DNA of 64,000 nucleotides from Longimicrobiales bacterium (GTDB lineage Bacteria > Gemmatimonadota > Gemmatimonadetes > Longimicrobiales > Gaopeijiaceae). The notes below the pieces were generated by a model. That model was given only the letters and a program-made list of their open reading frames with translations, ran no database searches and was not told the origin of the DNA. Position 1 is the stretch's first letter. The number at the start of each line of letters is the position of its first letter. Positions 54,083 through 54,165 of the stretch are shown in pieces. The stretch covers positions 448,001 through 512,000 of the forward strand of contig OZ241869.1 of NCBI GenBank assembly GCA_965202805.1, written 5' to 3'. The position numbers and the translations under genes were made by a program.

Positions 54083-54165
54083 AGGGGGGCCGTGTATCGG
54101 TGAACACACCGGATTTTAAATCCGGCAGCTGCTAGGCCTTGCGGGTTCGAATCCCGTTCCCCCTG
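54083..54165 (+). tRNA. tRNA-like gene, anticodon UUA (ochre suppressor-type), long variable arm, CCA not encoded
   Basis: Acceptor AGGGGGG/TCCCCCT, D stem GTGT/ACAC with GG loop, anticodon stem CCGGA/TCCGG with loop TTTTAAA, T arm GCGGG-TTCGAAT-CCCGT, discriminator G. Confidence 0.8.

Follow-up and report, generated by a model that had tools for sequence, protein, structure and literature searches.

A class II tRNA gene with a UAA-matching anticodon among insertion-sequence remnants of a Longimicrobiales chromosome

What is a tRNA gene whose anticodon matches a stop codon doing in the chromosome of a GC-rich bacterium? The question is raised by a gene in the window analysed here, a stretch of 64,000 nucleotides that corresponds to C1:448001-512000 of the single-contig genome G000 (4.02 Mb, 68% GC), hereafter the host. 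The features on which our answer rests are collected in Table 1; published work cited by PMC number is drawn on through excerpts of each paper or supplement.

Table 1. Coordinates of the window features (upper rows) and of related IS1595 loci in other genomes (last two rows).
Feature	Position	Strand	Remarks
DDE transposase end	53287-53496		Upstream of tRNA
Two fused gene remnants	53820..53933	-	47 bp antitoxin-like and 67 bp of other gene
Hairpin leader	54050..54079	+	Ends 3 nt before tRNA; -18.9 kcal/mol
Class II tRNA gene	54083..54165	+	7/5 cloverleaf, anticodon UUA, G73, no encoded CCA
Anticodon TTA	54116..54118	+	Loop TT-TTA-AA
Variable arm, 15 nt	54126..54140	+	3 pairs, 4-nt loop, A.C mismatch at base
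71-aa conserved hypothetical	54315..54530	+	Homologues also on plasmids
100-codon gene	54581..54883	+	Weak matches to UvrC/Cho nuclease region
Small HNH endonuclease gene	54933..55196	+
Repeat, insertion-sequence end	55191..55477		Right border of cassette
Cytosine methylase, HATPase-domain protein, Mrr-helicase, Vsr cluster	56702-62468		Starts 2.5 kb downstream of tRNA
PRTase-CE gene	63073-63999		Opposite strand to methylase-Vsr cluster
Two-tRNA IS1595 element	L217:5155-7206, L233:4851-6902 (G686); L207:4828-6906 (G021)
Lone serine-body TTA tRNA with hairpin leader	L017:9694-9782 (G256)		Downstream of divergent IS1595 transposase

The locus is a genuine, well-formed tRNA gene with a stop-matching (UAA) anticodon. 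ARAGORN called it tRNA-Stop(tta) at the expected coordinates, the sole tRNA in the window, and Rfam model RF00005 matched it over the full length of the model with 48.5 bits (E 3.2e-8), a score below those of the host class II tRNAs scored (51.6-61.1) and near those of the phage serine tRNAs L143 and L184 (46). Our re-reading agreed with the first-pass annotation on the 7/5 cloverleaf, the CCGGA/TCCGG anticodon stem, the TT-TTA-AA loop and the UUA anticodon. The acceptor stem (54083-54089/54158-54164) contains A1:U72, five G:C pairs and G7.U66; C8 and C9 lead into a D-stem of 4/4 pairs closed by the D-loop ATCGGTGA (8 nt), and the T-stem is 5/5. All four main stems are thus fully paired with zero mismatches, and the nearby transposons are fragmentary. 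Together with UUA, the 7-nt loop with U33 and a purine at 37 gives the gene the sequence features of an ochre suppressor, and we take A36-A37-A38 to be a MiaA motif. Its folding energy is unremarkable (z -1.7) and the predicted pairing probability of the D-stem is just 0.16; C8, U15, G7.U66 and the 3-pair variable stem may weaken folding. Two of the features originally listed as atypical need correcting. The missing CCA is not atypical, because CCA is encoded in 0 of 48 tRNA-like genes parsed in G000 and its absence is therefore normal, and U32 drops out as well, being present in 42 of 68 Leu-anticodon and 21 of 45 Ser-anticodon tRNAs of a pattern-biased pool.

The genetic code of the host is standard: the RF1 (PVT) and RF2 (SPF) motifs are intact and table 11 ORFs cover about 81% of G000, on which grounds stop-codon reassignment was rejected. 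The window tRNA is an extra gene, since G000 already possesses Leu(TAA), Ser(TGA), Tyr and Sec tRNAs. The machinery found includes one SerRS over the cut-off, GlnRS, a poly(A) polymerase/CCA-family nucleotidyltransferase, MiaA and MnmG. As had been proposed, the host rarely terminates at UAA: in a rough set of 2098 ORFs of at least 150 codons, picked by frame composition and under-sampling short and low-GC genes, TGA ends 1237, TAG 718 (34%) and TAA 143 (about 7%). TAA stops occur in 7 of 40 genes below 60% GC vs 116 of 1851 at 65% GC or above, and the Leu codon TTA occurs 0.3 times per 1000 codons in the same 2098-ORF set. A second 'Stop(tta)' at C1:3204602, called at a lowered threshold only and poorly paired, was dismissed as a false call. 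Elsewhere in the chromosome, 17 canonical tRNA genes, about a third of the G000 set, lie in one array (C1 c2827836-2830698), and a second, divergent tRNA-Asn(GTT) lies at C1:3118087-3118159 with no transposase nearby in the ORF list.

Which amino acid would such a tRNA carry? Its body was compared with a pool of 158 other class II tRNAs, which is biased by the search patterns, includes two canonical tRNAs of G025 and yields Leu, Ser and Tyr tallies that omit a few oddly labelled members (Val, Asn, Thr, Met, Ile). Beyond these two tRNAs, G025, an unpublished genome, enters the analysis only as one of the genomes searched. When stem positions are counted, Leu(TAA)/Leu(CAA) tRNAs match best, at 31, 30, 30, 29 and 29 of 41, along with one Ser(TGA) at 29; the closest is a phage Leu(TAA) with 31/41. 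A24 is likewise Leu-like (39/68 Leu vs 3/45 Ser), G24 being present in 36/45 Ser tRNAs. At the acceptor end, G73 occurs in 41/45 Ser-anticodon vs 2/68 Leu-anticodon tRNAs of the pool, both exceptions being UAA tRNAs borne by insertion sequences, and G2:C71 in 44/45 vs 13/68. Judged by these positions, the window tRNA is a hybrid, with leucine-type D, anticodon and T arms and a serine-type acceptor end (G73, G2:C71). It shares with tRNA-Ser the long variable arm, G73 and G2:C71, and departs from it in A1:U72 (not G1:C72), G3:C70 (no U70) and A24 (not G24); the four host Ser tRNAs all have G1:C72 and U70 and all end in TCC-G, which the window tRNA lacks. In place of the tRNA-Leu features A73, A15:U48 and A20a (excerpts of PMC9976931), it has G73, U15 and, in our numbering, G20a. 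According to the same excerpts, A73 is required by LeuRS, G73 acts as an antideterminant against both LeuRS and TyrRS, the variable arm and not the anticodon is what SerRS recognizes, and an A73-to-G73 change converts Leu identity to Ser (PMC9976931). In E. coli, serine was inserted by allo-tRNAs that combine G73 with Leu anticodons (PMC5389517). Because G73 would block LeuRS and TyrRS and SerRS uses the variable arm independently of the anticodon, serine is the likeliest charge. The serine identity first suggested from G73 and the long variable arm thus holds up, with G2:C71 as a further serine-type feature.

We next turned to relatives, with less return: no relative that keeps both the body and TTA was found in genomes, viruses, plasmids or metagenome contigs. 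BLAST of 41 genomes gave no same-body TTA homologue, the hits in 9 other genomes being canonical Leu/Ser tRNAs and the G021 pair described below, and BLAST of phages and plasmids with the window tRNA gave no match. Pattern searches of viral sequences for a same-body TTA tRNA gave 0 hits and a viral D-loop pattern 52, none with TTA; genome contigs, a set from which records of G000 itself may be missing, gave 44 hits, among them 3 tRNAs, all TAA, and metagenome contigs 1 hit that was not a tRNA. These patterns required exact matches, several of them with a fixed T-loop or D-loop, and may therefore have passed over divergent relatives; one viral scan refers to the 80 listed of 120 matches. Since no close homologue was found, selection on the TTA of the window gene is unproven. 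Within the order Longimicrobiales (Gemmatimonadota), a class II pattern with the window D-loop matched 3 of 401 genomes, namely G000 (TTA), G021 and G686 (both TAA), and a TTA/CTA class II pattern matched 5 of 374, with tRNAs in four (G000, G021, G686 twice, G256) and a non-tRNA in one. TTA pattern matches in G200 (L016) and G027 (L308) were dropped because ARAGORN called no such tRNA there. The best global match among 23 tRNAs compared was the IS-borne UAA tRNA of L217 (70%), which has C8, the ATYGGTGA D-loop and G73 in common with the window gene. As C8 and this D-loop also occur in the phage Ser tRNAs L143, L156 and L184, they may be features of a type rather than signs of decay. The UUA anticodon itself is found on several unrelated class II bodies (L009, L027, L327, L328), which suggests a state reached repeatedly by mobile DNA.

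One such carrier is the IS1595 family. A serine-body UUA tRNA, whose body differs from that of the window gene, adjoins IS1595 transposases in three further genomes of this bacterial family, namely G021, G686 (in two copies) and G256. In G021 and G686 it stands in tandem with a G73 TAA tRNA inside a 2.05-kb IS1595 element composed of a transposase, a 125-aa ORF, a short ORF, a hairpin leader and the two G73 class II tRNAs (TTA, TAA). The two copies in G686 are identical and each is bounded by a separate 8-bp direct repeat, a sign of recent transposition and of host tolerance. Between G021 and G686 the TTA tRNA differs at 3 of 89 positions and the transposases are 87.7% identical; the G256 gene matches the G021/G686 gene at 80-82 of 89 positions (90-92%), with one compensatory change in the acceptor stem, and its transposase is about 50% identical to theirs in global alignment. 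By these identities the serine-body TTA tRNA is more conserved than the transposases that carry it. None of the 9 differences in 89 positions between G021 and G256 falls in the 7-nt loop, an outcome that chance alone gives about half the time (0.9^7), so that retention of TTA in this IS-borne tRNA is weak evidence.

Of the 60 IS1595 loci examined, some of which overlap or are copies, 9 carry a tRNA-like gene: four the TTA gene, one a leucine-type TGG, one a cysteine-like GCC (a body typed by our own reading) and three genes with 6- or 8-nt loops. In the IS1595 element of the host itself (C1:3532273-3533460, L244), a hairpin is accompanied by a tRNA-like gene whose anticodon loop has 6 nt and which scores 56 bits on RF00005. 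Other IS1595 neighbours include a gene in G004 with a leucine-type body, a proline anticodon and an encoded CCA (L245:1131-1220), and cysteine-like bodies with GCC or 8-nt loops (L278, L283, L284). In G021, a 403-aa RelA/SpoT-domain gene (L012:11216-12427), whose product may be a small alarmone-synthetase toxin, lies between the two-tRNA element and a second IS1595 transposase. Beside the window tRNA, neither IS1595 ends nor an IS1595 transposase was found, and two end motifs searched in the window gave no match; the nearest IS1595 fragment, at about 47531-47864, is 6 kb away and beyond other insertion sequences. Because no ends or transposase adjoin the gene, its descent from IS1595 cargo is a step that we infer. 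A search of titles and abstract beginnings, covering few subscription journals, returned no paper on IS-borne mismatched tRNAs.

The surroundings of the gene are those of worn accessory DNA. GC drops to 0.57-0.60 from 54001 onward. Upstream lie transposase genes recognized by Pfam domains, which we take to be IS3- and IS30-like, and the two fused remnants. The 47-bp piece derives from an antitoxin-like gene, which in G018 is located ahead of a PIN-domain gene, and the 67-bp piece from another gene 1.9 kb away in that genome; the upstream DNA is a patchwork of deletions. An upstream integrase remnant was considered and rejected, the remnant being antitoxin-like. In a contig of run X3, which belongs to another study, agreement with the window extends from 52641 to 53822 and then breaks off, suggesting that related strains differ on the tRNA side. 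A plus-strand search for a sigma-70-type promoter gave none. The leader hairpin resembles the one preceding the tRNA-like gene of the host's own IS1595 element, a likeness of weak evidential value in that the pattern was derived from these same two cases, and the upstream folds of several host tRNAs are equally stable (-17 to -23 kcal/mol). [quoted passage not shown]

Downstream, three small intact ORFs are followed by the insertion-sequence end. The 71-aa gene has three homologues in the phylum, with no tRNA beside any; a link through this gene was rejected, as its homologues have neither a tRNA nor IS1595 nearby. The product of the 100-codon gene is, by our own reading, a putative GIY-YIG protein; the gene has a TAA stop, followed in frame by another TAA two codons on. 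Read-through that would fuse it to the HNH gene was rejected on account of this second TAA and the different frame, and no neighbouring gene was found that requires UAA read-through. The repeat at the right border has three further copies in G000, one adjoining an integrase-core ORF, and is presumably IS481-type by its end motif. An integron cassette array was rejected because there is no repeat family, and a role of the tRNA as integration site because its 3' end has no duplicate. The description of the locus as a defence island is a loose one: the methylase-ATPase-helicase-Vsr cluster does lie 2.5 kb downstream, while the tRNA itself sits among insertion-sequence remnants in a lower-GC stretch.

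Based on these findings, we propose, at a probability of roughly 0.45, that the gene is an orphaned mobile tRNA, probably a weak serine ochre suppressor. It would be a horizontally acquired class II tRNA from the family's pool of anticodon-swapped tRNAs of mobile elements, now stranded amid insertion-sequence debris. Transcription would run through the upstream hairpin, followed by trimming, addition of CCA and charging with serine, the last step expected from the block that G73 puts on LeuRS and TyrRS and from the indifference of SerRS to the anticodon. EF-Tu would then deliver the tRNA to UAA, where it would compete weakly with RF1 and RF2, and perhaps to UAG, giving short C-terminal extensions on a minority of proteins. 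We infer these steps beyond the DNA, namely expression, charging and read-through. The host may tolerate such read-through because UAA is its rarest stop. Harmlessness then depends on weak UAG wobble, since 718 of 2098 ORFs end in TAG; given that MnmG is present, these genes (34%) may be exposed. Classical E. coli ochre suppressors read UAG. Read-through is expected to be weak: with an engineered UUA tRNA in E. coli, product reached one fifth of the amber yield, and UAG was not read above background (excerpts of PMC3592851).

The strongest rival, unlikely in our judgement yet to be taken seriously, is a silent remnant: a mobile tRNA with a UAA (Leu) or UGA (Ser) anticodon would have lost its promoter or element, changed by one base to TTA and ceased to be expressed. 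The window tRNA is a singleton in our searches; the relatives nearest to it in the D-loop carry TAA, and in the stems it comes nearest to the phage Leu(TAA) at 31/41. Fused gene remnants flank it, and IS1595 cargo is often broken, with 6- or 8-nt loops in 3 of the 9 tRNA-bearing loci among the 60 examined. However, decay sits poorly with four mismatch-free main stems and three intact ORFs downstream, and UUA recurs on unrelated class II bodies (L009, L027, L327, L328, and entries in the excerpted supplement of PMC5389517).

A non-translational role, in which the anticodon is incidental, is rather improbable. The tRNA would either act as a decoy that distracts anticodon nucleases or toxins directed at tRNAs, or serve the three-gene transcript downstream as an RNase P/Z processing or stabilising element. 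Irregular tRNAs do occur near toxin-antitoxin loci, some of them charged yet unused in translation (excerpts of PMC5389517); the antitoxin-like remnant lies 220 bp upstream of the window tRNA, the RelA/SpoT-domain gene lies beside the G021 element, and the anticodon loops of IS1595 cargo vary widely. Yet no intact toxin partner was found adjoining the window tRNA, and its 7-nt loop with U33 and A37 fits the needs of decoding.

A wider reading, to which we attach only a small probability, is that the GC-rich bacteria of this family harbour a mobile mistranslation module. Ser-charged tRNAs directed at the host's rarest all-A/U codons (UAA and Leu UUA) would spare the host and corrupt the proteins of AT-rich phages or plasmids. 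In this scheme the window gene would be an ochre member assembled independently, and the two-tRNA IS1595 element shared by G021 and G686 would represent the form that is actively jumping. The anticodons of the latter match the two codons that are the rarest all-A/U ones in counts made in G000.

That the window tRNA is an ochre suppressor charged with glutamine, not serine, is improbable yet a real rival, as the host GlnRS (730 bits) could compete for it. The tRNA has U35, G10:C25, a weak 1:72 pair and G73; the host tRNA-Trp likewise has U72 and G73, and in E. coli GlnRS charges a tRNA-Trp that bears an amber anticodon (excerpts of PMC2965240). Against this, the host tRNA-Gln genes have A73, the window tRNA lacks G36, and its long variable arm favours SerRS. 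Finally, an assembly error at the anticodon, conceivable in that TTA lies within a T/A run one base away from TAA, TGA and GTA, is already largely refuted and a base-calling error unlikely, because contigs of runs X1 (depth 31) and X2 (depth 58), which belong to one study that is possibly the source of the assembly itself, cover 52536-55391 with zero differences to the window, anticodon included.

Natural ochre suppressors on bacterial chromosomes are rare, class II TTA tRNAs being present in 4 of 374 genomes of the order in a pattern-based count. If the orphaned-suppressor reading is true, genetic-code engineering could gain a useful chassis in a natural serine suppressor specific for UAA; a silent remnant would be no more than a curiosity. 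The window gene and the 2-kb two-tRNA element are small, clonable cases in which to ask whether mistranslating mobile tRNAs serve as defence, as decoys or drift, and the element is the more testable object of the two.

The window tRNA is reminiscent of several known systems. UUA-anticodon tRNAs in accessory DNA have been published as 9/3 and related allo-tRNAs, mostly with G73 (excerpts of PMC5389517), and the ochre allo-tRNAs are restated in a review (excerpts of PMC7609411); nine of the 10 UUA entries among the supplement sheet 1 rows examined have G73 (PMC5389517). The suggestion that irregular UUA tRNAs of this general kind occur in accessory DNA is therefore well founded. Like allo-tRNAs, the window tRNA combines a long variable arm (15 nt) and G73 with a non-serine anticodon in accessory DNA, and it would presumably work as they do. 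Allo-tRNAs, however, have an 8/4 or 9/3 branch and a long D-stem with a tetraloop (excerpts of PMC5389517), whereas the window tRNA is 7/5 with a 4-pair D-stem and an 8-nt loop. As to a toxin-antitoxin neighbourhood, the 47-bp antitoxin-like remnant is seen upstream. The registers of its acceptor branch differ little in energy (7/5 -30.9, 8/4 -29.5, 9/3 -27.6 kcal/mol), but 8/4 and 9/3 each need a C.U pair and only 7/5 pairs fully; a six-pair Sec-like D-stem would need an A.A mismatch. A strict allo-tRNA was therefore rejected for its 7/5 branch and 4-pair D-stem without tetraloop, and tRNA-Sec for its 12-bp branch (not 13), UUA (not UCA) and RF00005 as best Rfam family; the host's own tRNA-Sec scores 74.8 bits on RF01852. 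The resemblance to tRNA-Sec and allo-tRNAs that the first-pass annotation had seen thus gives way to stems closest to tRNA-Leu(UAA/CAA).

Nearer in architecture are the 7/5 leucine-type UUA tRNAs found in polycistrons near toxin-antitoxin loci (excerpts of PMC5389517). Those listed as 'tRNA2, tRNALeu (7/5)' in sheet 2 of its supplement, and seen in soil metatranscriptomes, share the 7/5 branch, leucine-type body and UUA, but in the rows examined have A73 and U8 and are polycistronic, whereas the window tRNA, with G73 and C8, is a solitary gene. Phage contigs L027, L327 and L328 likewise carry class II bodies with TTA; their bodies differ, and the window copy is on a bacterial chromosome. The phage tRNA-Ser genes L143, L156 and L184 resemble it in C8, the ATYGGTGA D-loop, a perfect 4-pair D-stem, G73 and U48, but have serine anticodons (TGA, GCT) and only 60-65% identity. 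Streptomyces tRNA-ProX similarly pairs a disagreement between body identity and anticodon with irregular tertiary-core bases; it has a dedicated synthetase gene adjacent (excerpts of PMC11415595), whereas none was found beside the window tRNA, in a genome with one SerRS over the cut-off. Set against these systems, the window gene is a hybrid tRNA of accessory DNA that joins a leucine core to a serine end and bears an ochre anticodon.
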